From a virus, in the UHGV virus genome UHGV-0356621: a DNA stretch of 43,895 bases. One strand, given 5' to 3'. Each line of letters starts with the position of its first letter. Position 1 is the stretch's first letter. Made by a program: the position numbers and the translations under genes. The notes under the pieces are model-generated. The model had not been told where the DNA came from, ran no database searches, and was given only the letters and a program-made list of their open reading frames with translations. Of this stretch, positions 1-43,895 are shown piece after piece.

Positions 1-166
1 TTTATTAGAAATTTGCACTTAAATCAAAAAGTTACGGACAATCCAACCACCAATCAATAAATTAAAGGGCACATTAAAGTACACAATATTTGTGCCCTTC
101 TCTGTTTCTTTCCCGTTATCAGCTAGCTGGAAACTTTTTATACAGAGTTGAGAGCCCTACTCCATA
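1..166. repeat. Terminal direct repeat, copy 1; matches 43730..43895 with 2 mismatches (positions 16 and 87)
   Basis: Direct comparison of the two window ends; both copies are cut by the window edge so the true repeat may be longer. Contains the invertase 3' end and a downstream hairpin AAGGGCAC-N19-GTGCCCTT. Confidence 0.9.
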
Positions 167-667
167 CGTTTTTGATACGCTTTGTCGTGATTCACCGGTT
201 GCCATCCGCTCCCCCATTTCCCGCCATTGCTCATCCGTGAACTTAGGCCTGCGACCACCAACTCGCCATTTTGCCCTGGCTACGGCCAGCCCTGCTAAGG
301 TACGTTCGCTATTAAGATCAGATTCATATTGTGCTGCGGAAAGGATGTTACGAAAGTTATAGCGGCCGCTGGCTGTTTTGAGATCCACGCCATCGGTAAT
401 ACTGCGGAAGTTGATACCCTTTTCCTGTAGCTGCTGGAACATCAACAGCGCATGCAGAACGTTGCGGCCTATCCTGTCCAGCTTCCAGACCACCAGTTCA
501 TCCCCCGACTGCATAGTGGCGATCAGCCGTTTTAGAACCGGCCGATTCGATTTCCGCCCGCTGGCATGCTCTTCAAAAATTTTCTCACAACCCGCTGACT
601 TGAGCGCCGTTAGTTGCAATTCAGTGTCCTGGTGGTTTGTTGATACTCGGGCATAACCGTAAATCAT
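119..667 (-). CDS. Serine recombinase, Hin/Gin/Pin-type DNA invertase
   Basis: N-terminus MIYGYARVST with catalytic Ser, VVWKLDRIGR motif, C-terminal HTH GVGLSTLYKKF; close to Salmonella Hin over the whole length. ATG at 667 preceded by AGGAGA; the track ORF start at 766 is an upstream extension. Confidence 0.93.
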   Translation of the reverse strand: MIYGYARVSTNHQDTELQLTALKSAGCEKIFEEHASGRKSNRPVLKRLIATMQSGDELVVWKLDRIGRNVLHALLMFQQLQEKGINFRSITDGVDLKTASGRYNFRNILSAAQYESDLNSERTLAGLAVARAKWRVGGRRPKFTDEQWREMGERMATGESRQSVSKTYGVGLSTLYKKFPAS

Positions 668-671
668 GGGA

Positions 672-697
672 TTTCTCCTGTTATGAAAACAGGAGAA
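672..697. promoter_or_regulatory. Palindrome TTCTCCTGTT-N6-AACAGGAGAA overlapping the invertase ribosome-binding site
   Basis: Perfect 9-10 bp inverted repeat whose 3' arm on the minus strand is the AGGAGA Shine-Dalgarno of the invertase; could form an RBS-sequestering hairpin or be a protein-binding site. Confidence 0.3.
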
Positions 698-846
698 ACG
701 GCGAAGCATCACCAGATTTTTGATGGTTATAAAAAAGGTTCGTTTAGAACTGGAGGGATGGTGCATGACTATGAAAGACGATGCTATTTAGATAGATAAA
801 CGGCGGGTCTCACTGGTGTGCGGTGATACAGCAAAACCCGTATAGA

Positions 847-1287
847 CTACACCTCTGGAGGAACAGGCCAGTTAACATTCTCGGGGTCGATTGTTACATC
901 AGCCTCTTTAACCTCATTTTTATAGGCCAGCCACGCTGACAACTTCGCTCTGTTGGCGTCGCTGATTTCACCGAGCATCAACTCCGTTCTCCAGTCGAGC
1001 ATAGTGGCGTCAGCTTGATTCAGTAAATGTTGGCGATAGCGCTCTGCTGCGGCCAGTAACTCATCGTAGGTTGGTGTCGGGATATCAACCCATACTGGCT
1101 TCGAATTTTTCGCCCCCAATATTTTCCCAGCAGGAGGAGTTACGCGCCAATATTTCTCGGCATCTTCATTTGAGACCTCAGTTGCATCTTCTGGCCATGT
1201 ATTTTCTGAATATGTGCCATCAGATTTCCATGAAGCAGGAATGAATGAGAGTAATGAGGGAACAAAATATGCGACTGTTTTTGTCAT
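847..1287 (-). CDS. Tail fibre assembly protein (lambda Tfa / P2 gpG-like)
   Basis: C-terminus ...SAWLAYKNEV...VNWPVPPEV resembles the conserved Tfa C-terminus (lambda Tfa ends DIEWPAVPVME); ATG verified; lies directly after the tail fibre gene. Confidence 0.7.
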   Translation of the reverse strand: MTKTVAYFVPSLLSFIPASWKSDGTYSENTWPEDATEVSNEDAEKYWRVTPPAGKILGAKNSKPVWVDIPTPTYDELLAAAERYRQHLLNQADATMLDWRTELMLGEISDANRAKLSAWLAYKNEVKEADVTIDPENVNWPVPPEV

Positions 1288-1288
1288 A

Positions 1289-2449
1289 TCAGAATCCTAA
1301 TGCAAACCAGCGGAAACCGTCTGCTGGAGTTGCTGTTGATACCCATGAGAAGAAGAAATTGACATCAGAGTTAGAAATGGCACCAACCTGAGAAAAAACA
1401 TCAATACCGGCATTTCCTGACAAATTGGACGGGGTTGCCATTGCCATCAAGGAGAAATTCGGGAACGGTGTTGGGAAAATAACGTTTTGCACCCCTTCTG
1501 GTATAGACTTTAAAACAGCGCCCCATTGAATTATTAACCCACCAGAAACGTCTGGAATGCGGACAAAATCATTCGCTGCAAAATTTCTCTTTGGAAGAAA
1601 TGATTTCAGGCCGCTGGCATCTACCATTTTTTTAGCCGTACCCGACTGAATATCAGCGGCGGTAGCGATCGGCCCCAATCCCAAACCTGAAAGTACTCCC
1701 GCTGCATCACTCCTGCCGAGTATTGTTCTTGCGAATGCTGTCAGATCGGTTATTGCTACAGTATCTTCGCCAGTGAAGTAAGGTAATTTATTTGCTGAAC
1801 TTGCCAGGGCTGCAATGGCAGTTAAAGTTGCATCCAGTGGTTGTTTCCCATTCAGCAATTCAGTTATGCCAAGGTAGTTCACGATATCAGCAATTTTTTC
1901 TGCCGCCACGACTGTGCGCCCAACGGTTGTAATTCCAGAAAGTCTGGCTGTGTTGCTGTCGTCAAAAAAAGGAAAACTGTTCCCAATGCCATTCAGCGTT
2001 GCGAGCTGCTTTAAACCAAGGTATGTGAGAATGTCAGCAATAGTATTTTTCCCGATAATGTCACGGCCAACAGAAGTTAAATCAGTCTGCGCTGCTGTAT
2101 CATTTCCAGTGAAATATGGGAGTTTATTTGCACCTGTTGCGAGCCCAGCTAATGCCGTCAGCGTGGCGTCAAGCGCCTGGAAATCCTTACCGAACGCGGC
2201 GGACATTTTGGTGATAAACCCGTTCAGGTCACCATCATCAAGCACGTCCAGCCCGCTTTTGTTAGCGGTGTACTGCGCCAACGCTGCCGCTATAAAGCTG
2301 GCCTGTCGAATGGCTTTGTTTACCTGCGCACTGGATGCCTTTCCTGCCATGAATCCAGAGAGTAGAGCCGGAAGTGTTTCCCAGTCAGCCTGGGCTGTCA
2401 CGTTAGCGTTAGGATCAATCGCAAACGCTTTAAAGTTATTTGTTGCCAT
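1289..2449 (-). CDS. Tail fibre protein, distal part, with P2 gpH-like tandem repeat
   Basis: Two copies of LDATLTA(L/I)A.LA...NKLPYFTG.DT...TDLT..R.I.G...A..L.YLGL, matching the KDATLTALAGLATAADRFPYFTGND segment of P2 gpH as I recall it; ATG verified with AAGGAA RBS. Confidence 0.75.
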   Translation of the reverse strand: MATNNFKAFAIDPNANVTAQADWETLPALLSGFMAGKASSAQVNKAIRQASFIAAALAQYTANKSGLDVLDDGDLNGFITKMSAAFGKDFQALDATLTALAGLATGANKLPYFTGNDTAAQTDLTSVGRDIIGKNTIADILTYLGLKQLATLNGIGNSFPFFDDSNTARLSGITTVGRTVVAAEKIADIVNYLGITELLNGKQPLDATLTAIAALASSANKLPYFTGEDTVAITDLTAFARTILGRSDAAGVLSGLGLGPIATAADIQSGTAKKMVDASGLKSFLPKRNFAANDFVRIPDVSGGLIIQWGAVLKSIPEGVQNVIFPTPFPNFSLMAMATPSNLSGNAGIDVFSQVGAISNSDVNFFFSWVSTATPADGFRWFALGF

Positions 2450-2458
2450 TTTTATTCC

Positions 2459-2761
2459 TTAAGCCCAGACGCGAGCCAGTGTTTTCGGTGCAACCACAAA
2501 GTCGTTCAGCCCGGATAAATCGAGCGAGTCATTCATGACCCGCAAATTGGCGTGATAGCCGGGTTCGGTGGTGTACTTGATAACTTCGTTTTCCTCGCCG
2601 GAATTGATAACTTCAGCAGGAACAGTGATAACGCCGACGATATCCAGGCTGATATCAGGGTGATAAAAACCACCCTGTCCCTCATCATCCACAAACCCCG
2701 CCGCGATTAATTGCGTGCGCATTTGGTTGGCGTCATTAAAGCGCAGATATAAGTCTCTCAT
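2459..2761 (-). CDS. Hypothetical tail-fibre-associated protein
   Basis: 100-aa ORF between the two fibre genes; ATG overlaps the upstream stop (TAATG). No recognisable motif. Confidence 0.4.
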   Translation of the reverse strand: MRDLYLRFNDANQMRTQLIAAGFVDDEGQGGFYHPDISLDIVGVITVPAEVINSGEENEVIKYTTEPGYHANLRVMNDSLDLSGLNDFVVAPKTLARVWA

Positions 2762-4269
2762 TAGCGGAGTCCATTGATTTGGTTGGGAGTTAGCAGGCGG
2801 TGCCAGATACGGAAATTGCGAATGTGGTAAACAAACCTTACGGATGTAGTTTGGTTTATATTCCCTATATACGAAACGGATTGCGTGATGTCATTAGGAG
2901 TAACGCTATGAGAGTTTGAATTACCGTTGTAGTAGTTTGATATCCTGCCCCTTTCCGTTGTATGAACGAATACTCCGCTACTACCCTGGAGGCAAGGTAT
3001 ACTAATGTCCGTTGAACTTCGATACGATTTTACTGTGTTGTCGTTAACCCACCTGCAAACAATATCATTGCTTGGGCCTTGTACCTTAACAACTTCAATA
3101 TATCCATCGGAAGCCTGTAAATATTTAGGGAAAAATTCAAATGCCAAAGTTCTGTTGAATAGCGTTGCAAGAGTAGGGTATCCACAGTTTTCTTTCGGGA
3201 TTTGCCAGTAATCAGCAGCTCTTGTAACTGTAGTTGCGGCCGTCGGGATATAGGATGTTGGGAATGGGCTATCTTCTAATTGTGCGCCCCAGGCGTATAA
3301 ACCAGATACGCCATCTCCGGTATAGATTGTTGACACACCATTTGCTAATTGAATGCGAATAACTGTTCTCTGACTCGCTCCGGCTGTGAAAACCATCCAG
3401 ACACGGTATATGCCATTTCCGAAATCATCAAAACCACGATCAACAAATTGAGCACCATGGCCAGGCCCAACCCAGGCACCTGCAGCCGGGTCAAAGAAAA
3501 CGCCTGATGTACTACCAGAAGCAACACGCAGATATAAATTACGCGGGCTGGTGTGAGCTTTTACGAAAACCGAATAACAATAAGTTGTTCCTGCTGTTAA
3601 AATAATATTGCGGTCTTGTGCATAGTGTTCAATGGTAGGGGAGGTACTCTCAATTATAAGCGCCATCGTTTTATCGCCGCGAGGCGAGTCGCCGCTATTA
3701 TTCGTTGTGGTAACGTCTTTCCCTGCGTCCCACTGTTCTGAATATGTATACAGGTTCGTAATCTGATGCTCAATTAAAAGCCCCTCTTTCTCAAAGCGCG
3801 GCTCATTAATTGCCGCCGTCTTCAGCACACCAGATTTATCGATGTACGTCGCCGTCGTTGAGCGAGTGAACGTCATCGACTTAGTGGGCAGAGGGTAACT
3901 TGTGCCGGCCACTGTGATTGTGTCCGCCGGCGCGATCCCGGCCAGCAGGCGAAGGTCATCGGACAGCGGCGCCCAGACATCCGGGAACGGCGCATCAACG
4001 TAAACGGTGGCGGCAGCCGAGTTCGCAGCATCAGCTGCGCTCTGGGCTGCTGCAGCGGCTGAACTGGCTGCAGCCTGCGCCGACTGGCTCGCTGATTGCC
4101 CTATCGCAACTACGTCGGCTTGTAGTCCGGCAAGCGTTTTAGCTTTTTTGCCCGTTCTGGTCGTAACCTCCTTACTGCTGGAATTTACGACCTCATCCAG
4201 AGTCTGCTGGTTATCAGCAAAGTCACGCAAATCGCTGGATGGTACTGAGTTATTTGTATTGTAAGGCAT
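2761..4269 (-). CDS. Tail fibre / host-specificity protein, proximal part
   Basis: 502 aa with an Ala/Ser/Gln-rich N-terminal stretch typical of fibre shafts; sits between baseplate genes and the distal fibre gene; ATG verified with AGGAA RBS. Confidence 0.6.
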   Translation of the reverse strand: MPYNTNNSVPSSDLRDFADNQQTLDEVVNSSSKEVTTRTGKKAKTLAGLQADVVAIGQSASQSAQAAASSAAAAAQSAADAANSAAATVYVDAPFPDVWAPLSDDLRLLAGIAPADTITVAGTSYPLPTKSMTFTRSTTATYIDKSGVLKTAAINEPRFEKEGLLIEHQITNLYTYSEQWDAGKDVTTTNNSGDSPRGDKTMALIIESTSPTIEHYAQDRNIILTAGTTYCYSVFVKAHTSPRNLYLRVASGSTSGVFFDPAAGAWVGPGHGAQFVDRGFDDFGNGIYRVWMVFTAGASQRTVIRIQLANGVSTIYTGDGVSGLYAWGAQLEDSPFPTSYIPTAATTVTRAADYWQIPKENCGYPTLATLFNRTLAFEFFPKYLQASDGYIEVVKVQGPSNDIVCRWVNDNTVKSYRSSTDISIPCLQGSSGVFVHTTERGRISNYYNGNSNSHSVTPNDITQSVSYIGNINQTTSVRFVYHIRNFRIWHRLLTPNQINGLR

Positions 4270-4297
4270 GGATATTCCTTGAACGATTCACAGGAAA

Positions 4298-5071
4298 TTA
4301 AAACGGCGAATCCCATGCTCCCCGATCGAAACCGGAAACATATTCATCATCGAGGTCGAAACCGAAAAACTGATATCCAGCAGATGGCCTGATAATTTCA
4401 CGGATGCGAACGCCAGCGGGCTTAATAGTCAGATAGCCATTTTTTATTACCCACACCATTTCATTGCTCAGGTCATCAATCGGATTATTGAAATACTGAG
4501 AGGGTGTGTAATCCGCCGGGAGGTCGATAAACGGCCCGCCATTTATAGCCGAGTCTAAAATAAGCCTGTCTGTTGGATTGATAATCGCGTCAGGGTCAGC
4601 GAGAACCCAGACAGACTCTGTCATGTCCAGGTTATCAATTATCGCCATCCTGATGCCGGAGCCAGCCAGCGCCACATCCAGAATATCCGGTATGCTTTCG
4701 TTGCGGCCGTCCCACTGGTTCATTGCCGCCTTGGCATTAAGCACGACACGATAAGTATCGTCGCTTAGCTGCATCAGGCCTTCATCCGGGTCAAATGGCC
4801 CCTGCCAGTTACCGCGATCCCACCCAAGGCTGTCTGTGTCCCAGGAGAAGTAGACGCCGGTTATCGGCGTAGACACCTGCCTGCTGCGGCCGATCCACTC
4901 CCCCAGGATATCCAGTTGGACACCGATGGCTGTGTCCAGGTCAAAGCTGTCAATCAGCCCACCAGTTGCAATATAGGTATCAGTCAGCGGGCGGGTGATC
5001 AGGTCAATGTGCTGCGGGAAGAGTTGCCGGGTCGCGTGATAGTTTGTGATCAGCTCGGTATATTTGCTCAT
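4298..5071 (-). CDS. Baseplate/tail protein (Mu gp48 / P2 gpI position)
   Basis: 257 aa immediately downstream of and overlapping the baseplate J-like gene; assigned by gene order. Confidence 0.5.
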   Translation of the reverse strand: MSKYTELITNYHATRQLFPQHIDLITRPLTDTYIATGGLIDSFDLDTAIGVQLDILGEWIGRSRQVSTPITGVYFSWDTDSLGWDRGNWQGPFDPDEGLMQLSDDTYRVVLNAKAAMNQWDGRNESIPDILDVALAGSGIRMAIIDNLDMTESVWVLADPDAIINPTDRLILDSAINGGPFIDLPADYTPSQYFNNPIDDLSNEMVWVIKNGYLTIKPAGVRIREIIRPSAGYQFFGFDLDDEYVSGFDRGAWDSPF

Positions 5072-6264
5072 GAGGCGGTCACCTTGATGTTTGCCACATC
5101 GCAGTGCGCCGCCTCATCGAACAGAATGGTGATATTGGCTGCTGCGGTAGTGGAAGCGCTTTTCCCGACCTTCAGAGAGGTGATGTCGTAGAACTTGCTC
5201 TCCCCGCCGCTCATTACGCCCAGGTTAGCCGGAGAGTAAACCCGGCTCAGCAGCACGGGGTCGCCGATGCGCAGCGAGTTTATATATTTCGCCACCTCTG
5301 CCTTAATTCTGTCCGCCGTTGAGGTGGTGTAGCCAGGGTAAGTGGTTAACGTGATATCCACGAAAACCTCTACCACTTTCGGGCGCGAGAATCGTATTTT
5401 CTTGGATTCACCATATCGGCCCACCAGGTTTACGGTTGTCGTGCCGAATGGTGTTGTCCCAACATCCTTTTTACCGGCGATCACCGTGGCGATTTCAGTG
5501 GCATCGCCGCCGTCAACGATGCAGCACATAGAATGCGCTGGCAGACCGTTGGAATCGGTAGTTTCAGAGTCGTTCTCATAACTGCGCAGTCGGGTTACGC
5601 CAGTGACGTTAAGCAGCGCCCCGTCCACACCCTCCATGGTGGTTTGTAATGTCAAGGCAGTACTGCGGGCCTGCCGTTCGCGCAGCTGAGCGTCTGTTTC
5701 GCCACTTTCCCCCACGGTTGCTGCAGCCGGGTTATTCACTGTTCTCCACCCGCGCGTCGGCGAGGCTATACGATTTATGGTGTTAGCCAACGCCACCACC
5801 GGGCCAGAAATAGAGCAGGTGGCGGTAACTGTGATAGACTGGGTTTGCGGGATAATCACGCTGGCAGGCAGGTTCCAAACTGTGCCGTTCGCATCACGCA
5901 CACTGCCAGCGGTGATCTGCGTGCCGACGTCGCCTTCAATCACTACGTCTGCCGTGGAGTTGGTCGCCAGCTTCCTGGTAATGCCGTTGATTTTGACGTT
6001 ACTGGACAGCGCCCGCCCCATGCTCGTACTGGGTGAGAACGAGTTATAGGCAGCGATACTGGTGTTGTTCGCGTCATGGATTCCCAGCGCGTAAATCGCC
6101 AGCATTTGTCCGTCTTTGCTGTCTGGTTCGAGGTAGGCATCACTACCGTAAATCTGCCTGAAATAGCTGGTCAGTGTATCAAGGATTGTCTGGTAATCAG
6201 GCGCACTAATCCCCTGGGCGGTTACCGTTGCCGATAGCCCCAGCGTGTCGAGGTTCAAAGCCAT
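5068..6264 (-). CDS. Baseplate J-like protein (Mu gp47 / P2 gpJ family)
   Basis: 398 aa, position and size fit baseplate J; ATG verified. Confidence 0.65.
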   Translation of the reverse strand: MALNLDTLGLSATVTAQGISAPDYQTILDTLTSYFRQIYGSDAYLEPDSKDGQMLAIYALGIHDANNTSIAAYNSFSPSTSMGRALSSNVKINGITRKLATNSTADVVIEGDVGTQITAGSVRDANGTVWNLPASVIIPQTQSITVTATCSISGPVVALANTINRIASPTRGWRTVNNPAAATVGESGETDAQLRERQARSTALTLQTTMEGVDGALLNVTGVTRLRSYENDSETTDSNGLPAHSMCCIVDGGDATEIATVIAGKKDVGTTPFGTTTVNLVGRYGESKKIRFSRPKVVEVFVDITLTTYPGYTTSTADRIKAEVAKYINSLRIGDPVLLSRVYSPANLGVMSGGESKFYDITSLKVGKSASTTAAANITILFDEAAHCDVANIKVTAS

Positions 6265-6618
6265 TTATGCCTCGCTTGTTACAGTCGTCTGGCCGTAGAT
6301 TGTGTCAATGGAGGAAGTGAAGGTGACGCGACGGCTGGTGCCGTCATAATTGGTATCGAAGGAAAGAATCGACAGAACGCCCGGCGTATCCTGTATGCGT
6401 TCGCGTATAGCCAGGATGTAGACGTCAGATCGCTGTTTACCCAGCACTGATTGAACATATGGCGTGCCTTCCGTCAGATCGAGAAACCACTGACCGCGCC
6501 ACAGTTCGAAACGGGTTTTCACGGCCTGGGCGACACACTCCGGACTGTCGATAAGGAAAGTATCGTCACCCTGCCCGAAAGTGTAATCGCCGTCAGCATC
6601 TTCGCGACGGTATCGCAT
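6265..6618 (-). CDS. Baseplate wedge protein (Mu gp46 / gp25-W-like)
   Basis: 117 aa between the spike and J-like genes; GGAGG RBS and ATG verified. Confidence 0.55.
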   Translation of the reverse strand: MRYRREDADGDYTFGQGDDTFLIDSPECVAQAVKTRFELWRGQWFLDLTEGTPYVQSVLGKQRSDVYILAIRERIQDTPGVLSILSFDTNYDGTSRRVTFTSSIDTIYGQTTVTSEA

Positions 6619-6621
6619 AGA

Positions 6622-7260
6622 TTAACCTCCCAGCGGCTTAGTATTGCTTCCGCCGCTCTCAACGCCGCCATGGGTATGCTTATCCACGATAGAACCGTCC
6701 ACCAGCTGCAAGCGACCGTCAGACAGTATTTTGAGCCCGTTAAGGTTGAATCCGCCCGGCGCTGTGCCATTTATTTCCCCGCTGGATGGGTTAAGGCTTA
6801 ATTTTGTACCGCCGTCATCGCTGCGCAGCTCTACCGAACTGGTACTGATGCCGCTGATTTTCTGCGCTTGCGACTGCGGGCCAACGATGGCGAACGCATC
6901 AGATAAGTCATGCTGGCGCGGGTCGACGGTCTCCTGAACGCCGCCGCTCTGCCACCAGAAATCGATGCAACGGTCGGCAAAGATCAGCAGGCACTCGTCG
7001 CCTTCTTTAACCGGAAAGGTCAACGTGCAACCGCCGCCGCGCGGGAAGATGACCGGCACATCCACCAGCGGTTTTAATTCGGTGGAGCCATCGCCAACGA
7101 CACCGCGAAGCGCCACCTCTACCGTGCAGGTAACAGCGTCAGGATCGAACGACTGAATGATGCCGGGCATCGCTACGCGCATCTGGGTAGACACCGAATC
7201 GGCAATGGCCTGCGCGGTCTGCTGCTCGCCGCCGATCTGTGATTGAGTTGGAATTGGCAT
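6622..7260 (-). CDS. Baseplate spike / assembly protein V (Mu gp45-like)
   Basis: 212 aa with a Gly-rich C-terminus and DKHTH motif as in gpV-type spikes; ATG verified. Confidence 0.6.
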   Translation of the reverse strand: MPIPTQSQIGGEQQTAQAIADSVSTQMRVAMPGIIQSFDPDAVTCTVEVALRGVVGDGSTELKPLVDVPVIFPRGGGCTLTFPVKEGDECLLIFADRCIDFWWQSGGVQETVDPRQHDLSDAFAIVGPQSQAQKISGISTSSVELRSDDGGTKLSLNPSSGEINGTAPGGFNLNGLKILSDGRLQLVDGSIVDKHTHGGVESGGSNTKPLGG

Positions 7261-7269
7261 AAAAACCCC

Positions 7270-7294
7270 ATAAAAAAACCCGCTCGGTGGCGGG
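7270..7294 (-). terminator. Rho-independent terminator downstream of the lipoprotein gene
   Basis: Minus-strand hairpin ACCCGC-N6-GCGGGT followed by a T7 run (plus strand shows AAAAAAA ACCCGCTCGGTGGCGGGT). Confidence 0.6.
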
Positions 7295-7326
7295 TTATAA
7301 TTTTCTAAAAATATTAAAGAGCCATT

Positions 7327-8049
7327 TTAAAGTAATCCCATTTTTCTGGCAGCTTCAATATTGTAAACATCTCCACGACCACTACACGGGGCAGCTAATG
7401 TAACCATTTCCACATACCCTTTATTACCTTTCTGTTGGCATATGCTCGCATGCATTTTCGCAAGCCTTGCCGCATGCTCGAAATCTATATAACTATCAAA
7501 CGAAGCTTCACTTAATGCGGTATATTTTGTTTTATCAGGTATGCTATTTATTTTTAACATGCCAGAAAAGTCATTCAACGCTTTAGTTAAATTAGATATG
7601 CAAATATTTTTATAATTAGCATTATCATATGCTGAGGCTCTTTTGCATTCTTCAGCGTATCCAGTGATAGCGATTTGTACACGTCTCATTGTTAAATGAT
7701 AACCACCGACTTTCACATAAACGTTATCCATATTCTGTGAATTTGGATAACGAGTAACAAAGCCCAAATTGTTAAGCGCTCTACTTAGTTCGTTTCCACT
7801 TGAACTTGAAGAATCAACATCTAACTTTTCCACTTCTACTTCAGGGTGTGAAGCTTCGAAATTTTCAGCTTCTTCTTTTTGTTTTTTTAACCGATTTTTT
7901 TGATTTTCATCAACTTGCTTTTCATACTCAACTCTTTCTTTCTCTTTTTGTGCCAGCCATTCCCTTTGTGCATTAACACCATTAGGGTCCCAACTGCATG
8001 AAGTCAAAAACATTGAAAAGAAAATGGGAGTTATTGCAAGCATATTCAT
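7327..8049 (-). CDS. Predicted lipoprotein of unknown function, AT-rich inserted gene (moron)
   Basis: N-terminus MNMLAITPIFFSMFLTSC has a lipobox (LTSC); Lys/Glu-rich coiled-coil segment then a Cys-containing C-terminal domain. The DNA is visibly AT-rich against GC-rich baseplate neighbours. ATG at 8049 (track start 8052 is TTG). Confidence 0.6.
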   Translation of the reverse strand: MNMLAITPIFFSMFLTSCSWDPNGVNAQREWLAQKEKERVEYEKQVDENQKNRLKKQKEEAENFEASHPEVEVEKLDVDSSSSSGNELSRALNNLGFVTRYPNSQNMDNVYVKVGGYHLTMRRVQIAITGYAEECKRASAYDNANYKNICISNLTKALNDFSGMLKINSIPDKTKYTALSEASFDSYIDFEHAARLAKMHASICQQKGNKGYVEMVTLAAPCSGRGDVYNIEAARKMGLL

Positions 8050-8056
8050 CAAAAAT

Positions 8057-9121
8057 TCATCCTGCGGTTTTGTTTATGGACGCTCCTGATTGCAAATCTC
8101 GCGCCCCCCTCGCAAAGCACATCAAATCCATGTACCACGCCTGACCTCTTGTGTCGCCAGTATAGTCGATAGCTTTGACGATATAAACGCCATCTGTAGC
8201 AATGCTGGCAGCCTGTGACGTCGTACCTGTCAGTACGCGGTTGCCGTTCTCTTCCGTCTCGGTGATACGCCCGGGCGACTGCGCGATTTCGCTATTGCCG
8301 AGTGCGGCGCGGTACACTGAAGCCTGATCGAGCTGGATAAGGCCATTAATGCGGATGTTGGGGTTTATCAAACACCGCACGTTTACGCCGCCGCCCATCG
8401 TCTGTTGCGGCATACCGATCAGGCCAGTATCGGCATTCAGCACGATGGCTTCGTGAATATATTTATCCTCCGGCACCATCTGGACCTGACCATCCACCAG
8501 CTGCCATGTCGCTTTGCACTGCGCAGCAATATTATCCATCACGTTACGGGTGGATGAGTAAATCGCGCGGCCACGAGGAAACACGGTATCAGGAAAGTCA
8601 CCGGTTATGCCCTGCGTTACGCCGAACGCGTTGAAATCCTGCATCGTCGCCCGGTGCAGATCCGCAACGGTATAACCGGCTGCAAGCGTGGTGATGGTAG
8701 TCGCATAGAGGAACGCTTCGTGGTCACCAATCGCCTGAATCAACACCCAGGAGTCGGTAATGTTATCCTTCCCGGTGACGGTGAAGCGAATATCACCGTC
8801 AAATATCAGGCCGTAGTTCTGACCGTTCACCTGCCCTACCTGGTCTGGTGAAATCTTCCGGGCGACACCAACCTGGCTCGCATCAACATCCGGCGCAATA
8901 CCGTCATACCCGGCAATGATGCGAATTTTTGCAAACTCCTGCCCCAGTATCTTGTTCGTGGTATCGGTCGAAAGGTTGTAAATTTTCACGTTCGCCACTC
9001 GCGGCCAGCGTGTATCTGCCCACTCGATCTGGAACGTGACCTTAAAATCAGACAGGGAAACGCCCTGCCCGTTCTGGTCCAACAGTTGCAGCTCAAAATG
9101 GCGCATCCAGTTAAGAGACAT
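8057..9121 (-). CDS. Tail/baseplate hub protein (Mu gp44 / P2 gpD position)
   Basis: 354 aa between the tape-measure-proximal tail genes and the spike; assigned by gene order; ATG verified. Confidence 0.5.
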   Translation of the reverse strand: MSLNWMRHFELQLLDQNGQGVSLSDFKVTFQIEWADTRWPRVANVKIYNLSTDTTNKILGQEFAKIRIIAGYDGIAPDVDASQVGVARKISPDQVGQVNGQNYGLIFDGDIRFTVTGKDNITDSWVLIQAIGDHEAFLYATTITTLAAGYTVADLHRATMQDFNAFGVTQGITGDFPDTVFPRGRAIYSSTRNVMDNIAAQCKATWQLVDGQVQMVPEDKYIHEAIVLNADTGLIGMPQQTMGGGVNVRCLINPNIRINGLIQLDQASVYRAALGNSEIAQSPGRITETEENGNRVLTGTTSQAASIATDGVYIVKAIDYTGDTRGQAWYMDLMCFARGARDLQSGASINKTAG

Positions 9122-26981: not shown

Positions 26982-27623
26982 TCATGCGGACTCCTTCTGC
27001 TTTGGTCCGCGATATTCACCATACAGAGGTGCTCTTCCTCTTGGCCTGGTATGCCTGTGGGTTACTTTGGGAGAAAAAAGCGCATCCTCTACATTCATTC
27101 CATTTTTTAGTCGACGCTTGATGGATGTTTCTGATACTGAAACGCGAGGATCCCTTGACCATTCTGTGGCGGTTTTCGTTTCGCCATTAAAAGTTATGGC
27201 TGTGCGTCCTTTTTTTGTGTGCTCAGGGATATGCACTCGAGATCGCATGACATTACACGCCCTGCACAGCACCCTAAGATTTGAGTCCGCATTGTTATCA
27301 ACAACCTCATCAATGTGATCAATATGCGCGGTTTTCCATGTGACCTCCTTGCCGCATTTTTCGCATGGTGGAAGTGTTTCTCCATAACGGTCGTAAACAA
27401 CTTTTCGGTGCTCATATACGCAACCATTCGCCATTGATAGTGGGTGATCAGGAATTTTGAGCATTTGATATCCTTTCGCATTTTTATGCCTGAATTTCCC
27501 TTTACCGTTTTTTGTGAGTTCGTAGGTCCCGTAGCGCATCATTCGGAAGTAGTGCATTTGACAGATACCCTTCCCTGGGTAGTGTTTGCATTCACGATCA
27601 CAACCTTCAACTTTGCATTTCAT
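26982..27623 (-). CDS. HNH homing endonuclease
   Basis: Cys-rich N-terminus and HNH motif HIDHIDEVVDNNADSNLRVLCRACN; C-terminal DNA-binding-like segment; ATGA overlap with NinG. Confidence 0.75.
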   Translation of the reverse strand: MKCKVEGCDRECKHYPGKGICQMHYFRMMRYGTYELTKNGKGKFRHKNAKGYQMLKIPDHPLSMANGCVYEHRKVVYDRYGETLPPCEKCGKEVTWKTAHIDHIDEVVDNNADSNLRVLCRACNVMRSRVHIPEHTKKGRTAITFNGETKTATEWSRDPRVSVSETSIKRRLKNGMNVEDALFSPKVTHRHTRPRGRAPLYGEYRGPKQKESA

Positions 27624-42136: not shown

Positions 42137-42334
42137 ATGGATGATATTTTGGTAACGTCAGACCTGACCAGTCGCTACAAAATTTCACGCAAAACCCTTT
42201 GGTCATGGCAAAGTGCAGACACAATGCCTCGGGGCTTCGTATGCCCGTTCCCACCCCCTGACTGGCCCGGCAACCCTAACCGCTGGCGCTCTGAGTCAAT
42301 CAAAGAGTGGGAGGATAAAAAGAAGATAAATTAA
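42137..42334 (+). CDS. xis: AlpA-family excisionase / transcriptional regulator
   Basis: [24 protein letters not shown]...[10 protein letters not shown] fits the AlpA/Xis winged-helix pattern; ATG at 42137 after GGAGAGAG; convergent with int. Confidence 0.6.
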
Positions 42335-43524
42335 CTGAAGGGCTCTCCGATGATCTCTTCAAGATGGCTCTGCCAAACGCGGAGCCAGTGTTTCTGATCA
42401 TCGATATAGTCATGAAGGTTGTAATGCGCCATAACCCCCACCATCTGATGCCCGAGCAGCTTTTCAATTACGTGCGGCGGGCAACCTAACTCAGAGAGAT
42501 TTGTGGCTATCGTCCGCCTCATATCATGAAGCGACCACTCTGCCATACCTGTTCCATTCCAAATAGAACGGGCGTAATTGGATGCCACAGGTGAATGAAC
42601 GGGCGAATCTTTGATCCCGCCATCAATTTTACGTTGTGAAGTCACCAGGTGATTGGTGTTTATTTTCTTGAGGTGATTTCTGACCAGGTTAACGGCGGCG
42701 TCTGAGAGTCCCCTTCTAATATGTACCCGAGTTTTATAACTGCCCGCAGGCACGACCCACTCATTATCATCCAATCGAAACCATGATCTCTCACTAAGTC
42801 GAATCTCAGCCGTACGGCATCCGGTAAGCATAATAAATTTCACCAGGAAAACGGACTCTATCGACATATGGCTTTTCAACCACTGATAGATTTTGCGCAG
42901 ATCGTCATCGTCCATCCTGCGAGTTCTCTTTTTAGGCTTTTGCCCGACATCAGATGGCAGTAATCCCTCGAGTGGGTTTGAGGCGATCACACTTCTGTTA
43001 ACGCAGAACCTAAACGCCCGTTTGCACAGCGAAAGCATGTAATGAGCCATCACCCTGCTTTCTATAGAATCGAAGACGTTGATCCAGTGCATTTTCGCTG
43101 TGTTATCGACTTTGACATTCTTCATCGGTTCGGCGATATGTTTCTCAAACACCTGGCGATAGTAATCGACTTTAACTAGCCCGTTAGCGATACAGTGCCT
43201 TTCAATCCAGTAATTGAACGCTTCGGCAACGGACATCGCTTCCTGTCGGGTCTGCTTATCCAGCTTCACCTGCTCTCGCGGATCCAGTCCCTCAGTTAAC
43301 CAGTTTCTGAATTGTTGGCGACGCTCTCTTGCCTGGGTGATACTCATTGCAGGATAATCACCAACATTGAGTTTTACCGCTTTACCGGCCCAGCGATACC
43401 GATAGAAAAATGATATTTTTCCGGCCTGGCTGATTCTGGCGTTGAGCCCGTGCGAATCAGAAATAATCTCGATATCATCTCTTTTCTTGCCGAGCGCCTT
43501 CCTGAGCTTTGTGTCGGTGATCAT
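42331..43524 (-). CDS. int: Tyrosine integrase, P4-like family
   Basis: N-terminus [10 protein letters not shown]...[29 protein letters not shown] as in P4-type integrases; C-terminal catalytic region ...HDMRRT...LLGH...Y; start at 43524 is one of several possible. Confidence 0.85.
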
Positions 43525-43729
43525 TGAATGGGTACACATTTTTGTTTTTGGGTACACAAAAGTGTACACAAAGTTGCCCACTCAAAGCTACACGCAATGT
43601 AACACTAGTTCGCAGAGTGTTATGGTTTACATCCTTGAAAGCCTGCTGGATAAGGGTTTAGCGTAACAGAACGTTTTTACGCGGAATTGTTCGTAATATG
43701 CCAAATGACAATTTAAGAAAGTGTTCTAA

Positions 43730-43895
43730 TTTATTAGAAATTTGAACTTAAATCAAAAAGTTACGGACAATCCAACCACCAATCAATAAATTAAAGGGCA
43801 CATTAAAGTACACAAGATTTGTGCCCTTCTCTGTTTCTTTCCCGTTATCAGCTAGCTGGAAACTTTTTATACAGAGTTGAGAGCCCTACTCCATA
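43730..43895. repeat. Terminal direct repeat, copy 2; matches 1..166
   Basis: 164/166 identical to the window start; includes a truncated copy of the invertase 3' end running off the window edge. Confidence 0.9.

Follow-up and report, generated by a model that had tools for sequence, protein, structure and literature searches.

The virus genome UHGV-0356621 (43,895 nucleotides (nt), analysed at its full length and called the window below) carries a DNA invertase gene beside genes for a tail fibre and a tail-fibre assembly protein (Tfa), all on the minus strand. A preliminary description had placed the invertase at 119-846, likened it to Hin, Gin and Pin, and seen no invertible segment for it to act on. 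The kinship and the neighbourhood are borne out, but the coding sequence (CDS) occupies only 119-667, and a segment flanked by two crossover sites is visible at 741-2017. With moderate confidence, we read the locus as a reduced tail-fibre inversion switch of the Din family (Gin/Pin type): one cassette is lost, and the other stands in the ON orientation and is probably locked there by the substitution G134W in the invertase, unless an invertase acts in trans. Its components are the following.

119-667, minus strand: DNA invertase CDS, 182 amino acids (aa), a pinL/Pin-like small serine recombinase (open reading frame (ORF), Pfam, PHROG, structure match to Gin, identity to phi80 and HK225)
266-268, minus strand: invertase codon 134: TGG (Trp) against GGG (Gly) in every relative, a missense change that probably inactivates the enzyme (alignment to relatives)
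727-752, plus strand: crossover site R, TTATAAAAAAGG TT CGTTTAGAACTG, core at 739-740 (position weight matrix (PWM), relatives, homology breakpoints)
741-2017, no strand: invertible or exchangeable segment of 1.28 kb, with one live cassette and vestiges of a second (about 99% identity across backbones)
741-791, plus strand: stub of the lost fibre C-terminus, 16 codons, RLELEGWCMTMKDDAI then TAG (translation, in-silico inversion)
798-875, plus strand: decayed 3′ end of the lost, inverted tfa′ (KRRVSLVCGDTAKPV, stop, TTPLEEQAS, stop), overlapping the 3′ end of the live tfa (comparison with the Tfa of E. coli strain 44)
847-1287, minus strand: Tfa, 146 aa (Pfam Caudo_TAP, 1e-22; PHROG 188)
1289-2449, minus strand: tail fibre, 386 aa, with constant aa 1-144 (2018-2449) and exchangeable aa 145-386 (1289-2017) (Pfam Gp53-like_C, PHROG tail-fibre families)
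2006-2031, plus strand: crossover site L, CTGCTTTAAACC AA GGTATGTGAGAA, core at 2018-2019, within the fibre ORF between YL and GLKQ of the protein (PWM, relatives, breakpoints)

The two sites were recognised through relatives and through a PWM derived solely from 13 Din-family sites in the literature (PMC3241671, Table 3), with which 43,870 window positions were scored. Site L ranks first (18.9 bits), a score reached in 0.5% of 200 dinucleotide shuffles. Site R ranks third (12.9 bits); this score is not significant alone, with 0.3 such matches expected per shuffle, and what makes the site convincing is where it lies and that it matches relatives. R is located 60 nt upstream of the invertase start. 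The core of L falls in codon L144 of the fibre, and there the homology of the N-terminal part ends, which is shared with more than 2,000 proteins whose C-termini are of many kinds. L reads TTCTCACATACC TT GGTTTAAAGCAG in the fibre sense, and the two sites are in inverted orientation, with plus-strand cores AA and TT. The outer half-sites of both are identical to those of two-cassette prophages in E. coli WEM25 and ET896.

This pair is what the preliminary description had missed when it reported no convincing hix- or gix-like sites. The weak half-sites that it saw at 713-752 correspond to R, which is a full site, together with one extra half-site abutting it. It had suggested searching for inverted repeats and for matches to hix, gix and cix. 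A generic inverted-repeat search of 1-9000 did not reveal the sites because their arms share only about 16 of 26 nt, so the matrix and the relatives had to find them. No further pair of sites with matching cores scores in the window with this matrix, contrary to the earlier idea that the invertase might act on different sites. We rejected a PWM match at 27378-27403 as due to chance: its core is GT and it has no partner. The fibre gene also contains an internal repeat (1682-1843 versus 2018-2179, about 49 aa apart and 61% identical), which gives the YLG(L/I) motif encoding site L a second copy at around 1864-1894; the 25 best PWM matches do not include this copy.

The segment between the sites holds one live cassette only, not two in opposite orientations. 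Searching the whole window by tblastn with Tfa and the fibre C-terminus found no second intact copy on either strand, in agreement with the preliminary description. What is left of the other cassette lies next to R. Every copy of the cassette has the same 16-codon stub, the intact convergent Tfa of E. coli strain 44, which ends in KKYRVLLMRVDTAKPEWPTPPGEQAS and a stop, is the counterpart of the decayed tfa′ end, and the DNA homology to loci with two Tfa genes runs past the stop codon of the live tfa. The earlier suggestion of a degraded switch is thus supported: of the second cassette, deletion has left only the stub and the tfa′ remnant, and the invertase carries G134W.

When the segment is inverted in silico at the TT/AA cores, residues 1-144 of the fibre are joined in frame to the stub, which predicts a truncated fibre of 160 aa, and the C-terminal part of the fibre comes to lie, with Tfa, behind the R flank. 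The ON junctions read ...AAAAAAGGTTCGTTTAGAAC... and ...CTTTAAACCAAGGTATGTG..., and the predicted flipped junctions are AAAAAAGGTTGGTTTAAAGCAGCT and CCAGTTCTAAACGAAGGTATGTGA. After inversion, the fibre C-terminus and tfa would face away from the late operon. Given one cassette and a stub, the outcome would therefore be fibre ON or OFF, rather than fibre A or B. Both sites look usable, since their outer halves are shared with the two-cassette relatives and their inner halves travel with the mobile cassette discussed below.

The arrangement resembles the G segment of Mu (Gin) and the P segment of e14 (Pin) in several respects. In all three, the invertase gene lies just outside the segment, one 26-bp site is immediately upstream of that gene, and the other site is within the fibre ORF at the junction of constant and variable parts. 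The segment contains the fibre C-terminus and a Tfa-type chaperone, the sites have a dinucleotide core, and the half-sites resemble pix and cix (TTCTC..AAACC). Unlike Mu G and e14 P, the window has one live cassette, with an ON/OFF outcome instead of alternative host ranges, and its R-outer half-site is of the CCTTTTTTATAA type that is typical of its own invertase clade. P1 C/Cin and p15B Min also share Din-family sites and tail-fibre cassettes, and an enhancer in the 5′ end of the invertase gene may be a further common feature. However, P1 cin points toward its segment and cixL overlaps the cin 3′ end, whereas the window site is 5′ of the gene. In p15B, cassettes bounded by such sites can be reshuffled, but that system comprises six sites and many cassettes.

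Among the closest systems are the two-cassette switches of WEM25 and ET896, which are integrated at yciI. They share the fibre N-terminus and the DUF2612/baseplate J context with the window, and their invertase (WP_000639140.1) is that of the window save for S54P and G134W. Their layout is fibre N-terminus, fibre C-terminus and Tfa, followed by a convergent second Tfa and fibre C-terminus and then the invertase. Their sites are TTATAAAAAAGG TT GGTTTGGGAGAA beside the invertase and, in the fibre sense, TTCTCACATACC TT GGTTTGGGAGAA on the fibre side. Unlike in the window, the inner half-sites have the consensus sequence, and a perfect 15-nt inverted repeat, TTGGTTTGGGAGAAG, flanks the segment. 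The window sites score below those of relatives (26.6 and 21.0 bits) because their inner halves diverge from the consensus. A related DUF2612-type prophage is integrated at yccA in E. coli strain 44, where the two-cassette fibre/Tfa segment (at about 2.933 Mb) is inverted between the assemblies NZ_CM132959.1 (L005) and NZ_CM132951.1 (L048), such that the Tfa proteins WP_456794233 and WP_456794234 swap places relative to the invertase.

The invertase itself has the features expected of the Din family: a resolvase catalytic domain (Pfam PF00239, 7.8e-38, aa 2-133), a C-terminal helix-turn-helix (HTH_7, PF02796, 1.5e-09, aa 138-181), and the catalytic serine and Arg, Asp and Glu residues. It matches PHROG 125, “DNA invertase” (2e-73), and its best match in the PDB is Gin (3UJ3/4M6F; E=1e-55, 51% identity, ungapped over 181 aa). 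Residues Y5, R7, S9, D64, R65, R68, E121, R122 and T123 are identical to those of Gin; a difference from Mu Gin, beyond the 51% identity, is G134W. We rejected a start at 766 (an ORF of 215 aa), which is simply the longest ORF; the start at 667 is preceded by AGGAG and is the one annotated in relatives. The stretch 668-846 therefore consists of a non-coding leader, the crossover site and remnants. Compared to the E. coli consensus represented by WEM25 and ET896, the protein differs only by S54P, a variable position at which a Citrobacter freundii relative (L042) also has proline, and by G134W.

G134W results from one base, at window position 268, that differs from WEM25, ET896, HK225 and phi80. 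Gin and 29 of 29 other invertase homologues (62-99% identity) have Gly at this position; 14 loci from species representatives served to judge the conservation of G134 and of the leader hairpin described below, not orientation. Position 134 aligns with Gly137 of gamma-delta resolvase. Among the arm-region glycines that correspond to G129, G137 and G141 of Tn3, the invertase retains the first and third (G126 and G138), and Trp replaces the second. Sirk et al. performed alanine scans of the arm regions of Tn3, Gin and beta, and listed Tn3 Gly137 among conserved, indispensable residues whose substitution lowers recombination more than 100-fold (PMC3985619). Their mapping of Tn3 R130/I138/K139/F140 to Gin L127/R135/I136/G137 gives an offset of 3, and so Tn3 G137 corresponds to residue 134 of Gin and of the window invertase (PMC3985619).

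From these comparisons, it is unlikely that Trp is tolerated at position 134, and the invertase is probably crippled. The W134 protein would most likely be unable to flip its own segment, which would leave the fibre locked ON, and an invertase from a co-resident prophage could unlock the segment in trans. The change is recent, because Gly is present in L042 (C. freundii), the nearest of the relatives that share the cassette and its sites. The preliminary description had raised the prospect of inactivating changes in the gene; G134W is a candidate for one, predicted from sequence, and the catalytic residues are intact. The change is a natural test of an arm-region glycine that has so far been studied only in engineered recombinases. 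The apparent anomaly of an invertase with nothing to invert would become an ordinary decayed host-range switch with exact site coordinates.

The cassette occurs in prophages of several kinds. The exact 146-aa Tfa is found in 71 blocks of the collection; these come from E. coli and Citrobacter, and the prophages concerned are Mu-like, P2-like, DUF2612-type or of other types. Segment 741-2017, including the stub and the vestige, is 98.9-99.2% identical in two Mu-like (L040, L041) and two P2-like (L043, L045) loci, with similarity ending at 734 and at 2022-2031; in DUF2612-type loci the identity is likewise about 99%. Inspection of the junctions in six other phage backbones showed that, at either end, the core dinucleotide marks the limit of identity. 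The Din-like outer half-sites differ from backbone to backbone; examples are CTCTCTCAAACC, TTTCTACAAAACC, CGTTTCCGATAA and CCTTTGATAGAA. Homologous recombination cannot explain these exact-core breakpoints, because the flanks are otherwise unrelated. The simplest explanation would be that crossovers by Din invertases at the cores moved the cassette between at least six backbones. Two P2-like hosts of the cassette have no invertase, which implies that the enzyme came in trans, as PinQ acts in trans on e14 (PMC12529663). GTDB species representatives and complete E. coli genomes yielded no relative of the fibre C-terminal cassette, IMG/VR gave only distant matches, and an exact 22-nt stub pattern yielded zero matches in metagenome and viral contigs.

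A broader, tentative proposal is that single-cassette segments constitute a portable receptor-binding module (fibre C-terminus, Tfa and stub) that is moved between myovirus backbones at the cores by Din invertases, and then serves as an ON/OFF phase switch. The cassette, with its roughly 99% identity over 1.28 kb and its breakpoints at a 2-bp core, would be a clean natural example of the exchange of fibre modules at invertase sites. This bears on predicting and engineering phage host range, and on annotating the “recombinase family protein” genes that lie beside tail fibres. In Citrobacter meridianamericanus (L047; CP101051.1, 5001-7458), the fibre is frameshifted right after the crossover site and the fibre C-terminus and tfa are fragmented, with an intact invertase. 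At this locus, a switch of the same type has decayed further.

We judged orientation from assemblies and from the protein collection. The window shows the ON state, and so does the sole further assembly of this exact locus, a contig of 2,842 nt that reaches across both junctions. Exact ON-state fibres occur in 16 contigs, and the OFF fusion proteins predicted for the window and for four invertase-bearing backbones are absent among about 15 billion proteins. A flipped form is nevertheless represented by a C. freundii protein of 255 aa (P0153, WP_200079245.1 / MBJ8815556.1), which reads MPFERLRIIIGNV and then GLKQLATLNG.... Its first 13 residues are the exact translation of the R-outer flank of the Mu-like L040/41, and the cassette is therefore joined to an L040/41-type R flank in the flipped orientation; the flipped state in this case rests on the protein sequence. 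A second flipped-type protein (P0157) comes from an unsampled backbone. Single-cassette segments can thus invert, and OFF forms are uncommon. A 160-aa protein (P0093) has a length that fits a flipped fusion, but we rejected it, since its locus is the frameshifted, decayed and ON-oriented one in C. meridianamericanus.

Expression of the invertase is probably restrained by its leader. Three elements in or near the 5′ end of the gene can be distinguished.

578-649, minus strand: stretch at the position matching the P1 cin recombinational enhancer (CDS nt 19-90) (annotation of the P1 record; homology of position only)
671-699, minus strand: leader hairpin with a 12-bp stem, a 5-nt loop and an AGGAG ribosome-binding site (RBS) in the 3′ arm (folding, conservation, phi80 IR3)
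715-726, plus strand: lone hix-like half-site GATTTTTGATGG, matching GGTTTTTGATAA at 9 of 12 positions and abutting R (sequence compared to the half-sites of PMC3241671, Table 3)

The perfect palindrome that the preliminary description saw over the RBS at 672-697 is present, and extends to 672-698, with 11-nt arms and a 5-nt spacer; the phi80 record annotates it as “IR3”. The AGGAG is 4 nt ahead of the invertase ATG. The 71-nt leader folds at -23.2 kcal/mol (z = -4.87), and none of 200 shuffled sequences is as stable. The stem is kept in eight relatives (86-99% protein identity), in which loops vary, and phi80 has one compensatory change from U-A to C-G; among more distant invertases the hairpin is absent. 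Folding and conservation support the earlier suggestion that the palindrome controls translation, although they fall short of proof. The hairpin probably sequesters the RBS and would hold translation of the invertase low. Translational damping is the likeliest role, and a protein operator is a less likely alternative.

WEM25, ET896 and HK225 retain the half-site at 715-726, and phi80 does not. The half-site overlaps a candidate -10 element, TATAAC, on the minus strand. Hin and Cin autoregulate, and by analogy this half-site might let the window invertase do so. A scan of the minus strand for promoters of the invertase found no sigma-70-like site; the TATAAC within the outer half of R lacks a -35 element. 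It is possible that the invertase is expressed by read-through from the tail operon.

Several observations weigh against a decayed Din-family switch locked by G134W. The 12.9 bits of R are below the score of every published site (hixR has 16.7 and mix1 17.3), and the inner half-sites match the Din consensus poorly, with the TTC of the R-inner half displaced by 2 bp. A simple scan of the enhancer-equivalent stretch for Fis motifs was uninformative, as Fis sites went unrecognised even in P1 cin. The flipped protein P0153 belongs to a different backbone, with a different, Gin-like invertase. The alanine scans behind the inference on G134 used hyperactivated zinc-finger fusions, not a native invertase, and G134W could be a sequencing error that is shared with a single Logan contig.

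If the W134 invertase were active, the locus would be a working ON/OFF switch, in which 741-2017 flips at a low rate and lysogens release a mixture of particles with and without the fibre. OFF particles might still adsorb to another host via a separate 502-aa tail protein. The sites are paired, inverted and have matching cores, the catalytic residues are intact, and the cassette has been flipped elsewhere (P0153). In their leader hairpin and enhancer-equivalent region, the two-cassette relatives WEM25 and ET896 do not differ from the window. Moreover, at least four further backbones (L038, L039, L040/41 and L042) have kept an intact invertase beside this single cassette. Nonetheless, we regard a working switch as unlikely. 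The substitution affects a glycine that is invariant in the 29 homologues and indispensable in alanine scans, OFF fusions are missing from the protein collection, in which ON forms are found, and the stop codons in the stub and the tfa′ vestige point to decay rather than design.

We consider it more doubtful still that the locus is purely a relic or hitch-hiker, whose sites are no longer recombined by this clade of invertases, with the gene kept by its linkage to the integrase gene (int) and the phage attachment site (attP), or serving other prophages in trans. This idea draws on the lambdoid siphoviruses phi80, HK225, mEp237 and mEpX1, which use the same yciI integration site. Window positions 1-745 are 95-99% identical at the nt level to their pinL/invertase region, and share 99% identity with prophages from about 200 complete genomes of E. 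coli. The similarity covers the gene, the IR3 hairpin, the outer half of R and the attP arm. In these phages, the invertase and R are located beside attP, but there is no L site and only fragments of fibre genes follow R, making the invertase a true orphan. In addition, phi80 pinL (L001, 5149-5667; the HK225 counterpart is L002, 5119-5745) is cut short at 172 aa, and its HTH is missing the final 10 residues. Orphan Pin proteins that act in trans are documented (PMC12529663), and the inner half-sites of the window are weak. PinQ of the Qin prophage, acting on the e14 P segment, is likewise a prophage Din-type invertase whose relevant substrate is possibly in another element (PMC12529663); an enzyme of this sort would be a potential source of activity in trans were W134 inactive.

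However, PinQ has no segment of its own, whereas the window gene has both L and R in cis, in the correct inverted arrangement, and is not an orphan; no defence function is indicated for it. In contrast to the phi80 group, the window invertase is joined to a tail module of the myovirus type, in which both sites and a live cassette are present. The two-cassette relatives have the same invertase apart from S54P and G134W, and the exact-core breakpoints in many backbones argue that Din invertases use these half-sites. The block of int, attP and pin looks like a module that is common to siphovirus and myovirus prophages using yciI.

It is very improbable that a partner cassette or second site is outside the window, beyond its terminal repeat, as the preliminary description had also considered: the window does end 166 nt into a repeat of its own start, with the DNA beyond unseen, but the repeat is a wrap-around across attP, beyond the invertase come the attP core and int (HK225, phi80) or yciI (E. 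coli lysogens of related prophages), the segment is on the fibre side of the invertase in all relatives, and both sites were found inside the window.

The junction responsible for the terminal repeat is organised as follows.

43711-43895, plus strand: attP core (43711-43727), then a repeat of window positions 1-166 (copy at 43730-43895, 2 mismatches)

The window is a complete temperate myovirus-type genome in the attP form, with an integrase gene at 42331-43581. Its attP core is that of phi80 and HK225. Homology to E. coli lysogens on the int side ends at 43730, and on the invertase side of related prophages, yciI ends directly before the equivalent of window position 1. The free phage genome of HK225 is contiguous across the int-attP-invertase junction, as in the window. 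The two copies of the 166-nt repeat differ at positions 16 and 87, and a simple assembly overlap is disfavoured because of these two mismatches. The window is either a circularly permuted phage-form genome or a junction of tandem prophages.

Upstream of the invertase, the minus-strand genes are, in order, a DUF2612 protein (4298-5071), the 502-aa tail protein (2761-4269), a 100-aa ORF (2459-2761), the fibre (1289-2449) and Tfa (847-1287). The 502-aa protein has a weak match to ConA-like lectin/Laminin_G_3 domains and matches PHROG 5939/1419, “tail protein”. Together with the 100-aa ORF, its gene (2459-4269, minus strand, for the pair) is situated between the DUF2612 gene and the invertible fibre. 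In the relatives L003, L004, L042 and L044, the fibre directly follows DUF2612, and WEM25 and ET896 are without the gene for the 502-aa protein. The phage may carry two different fibre-like receptor-binding proteins. Further along, amid the baseplate genes, an ORF of 241 aa (7327-8052, minus strand) has a lipoprotein-like N-terminus (...FLTSCSW) and no PHROG match. Its slot in relatives is occupied by other small, unrelated genes (DUF4282, DUF4236), and the position may be a moron slot.

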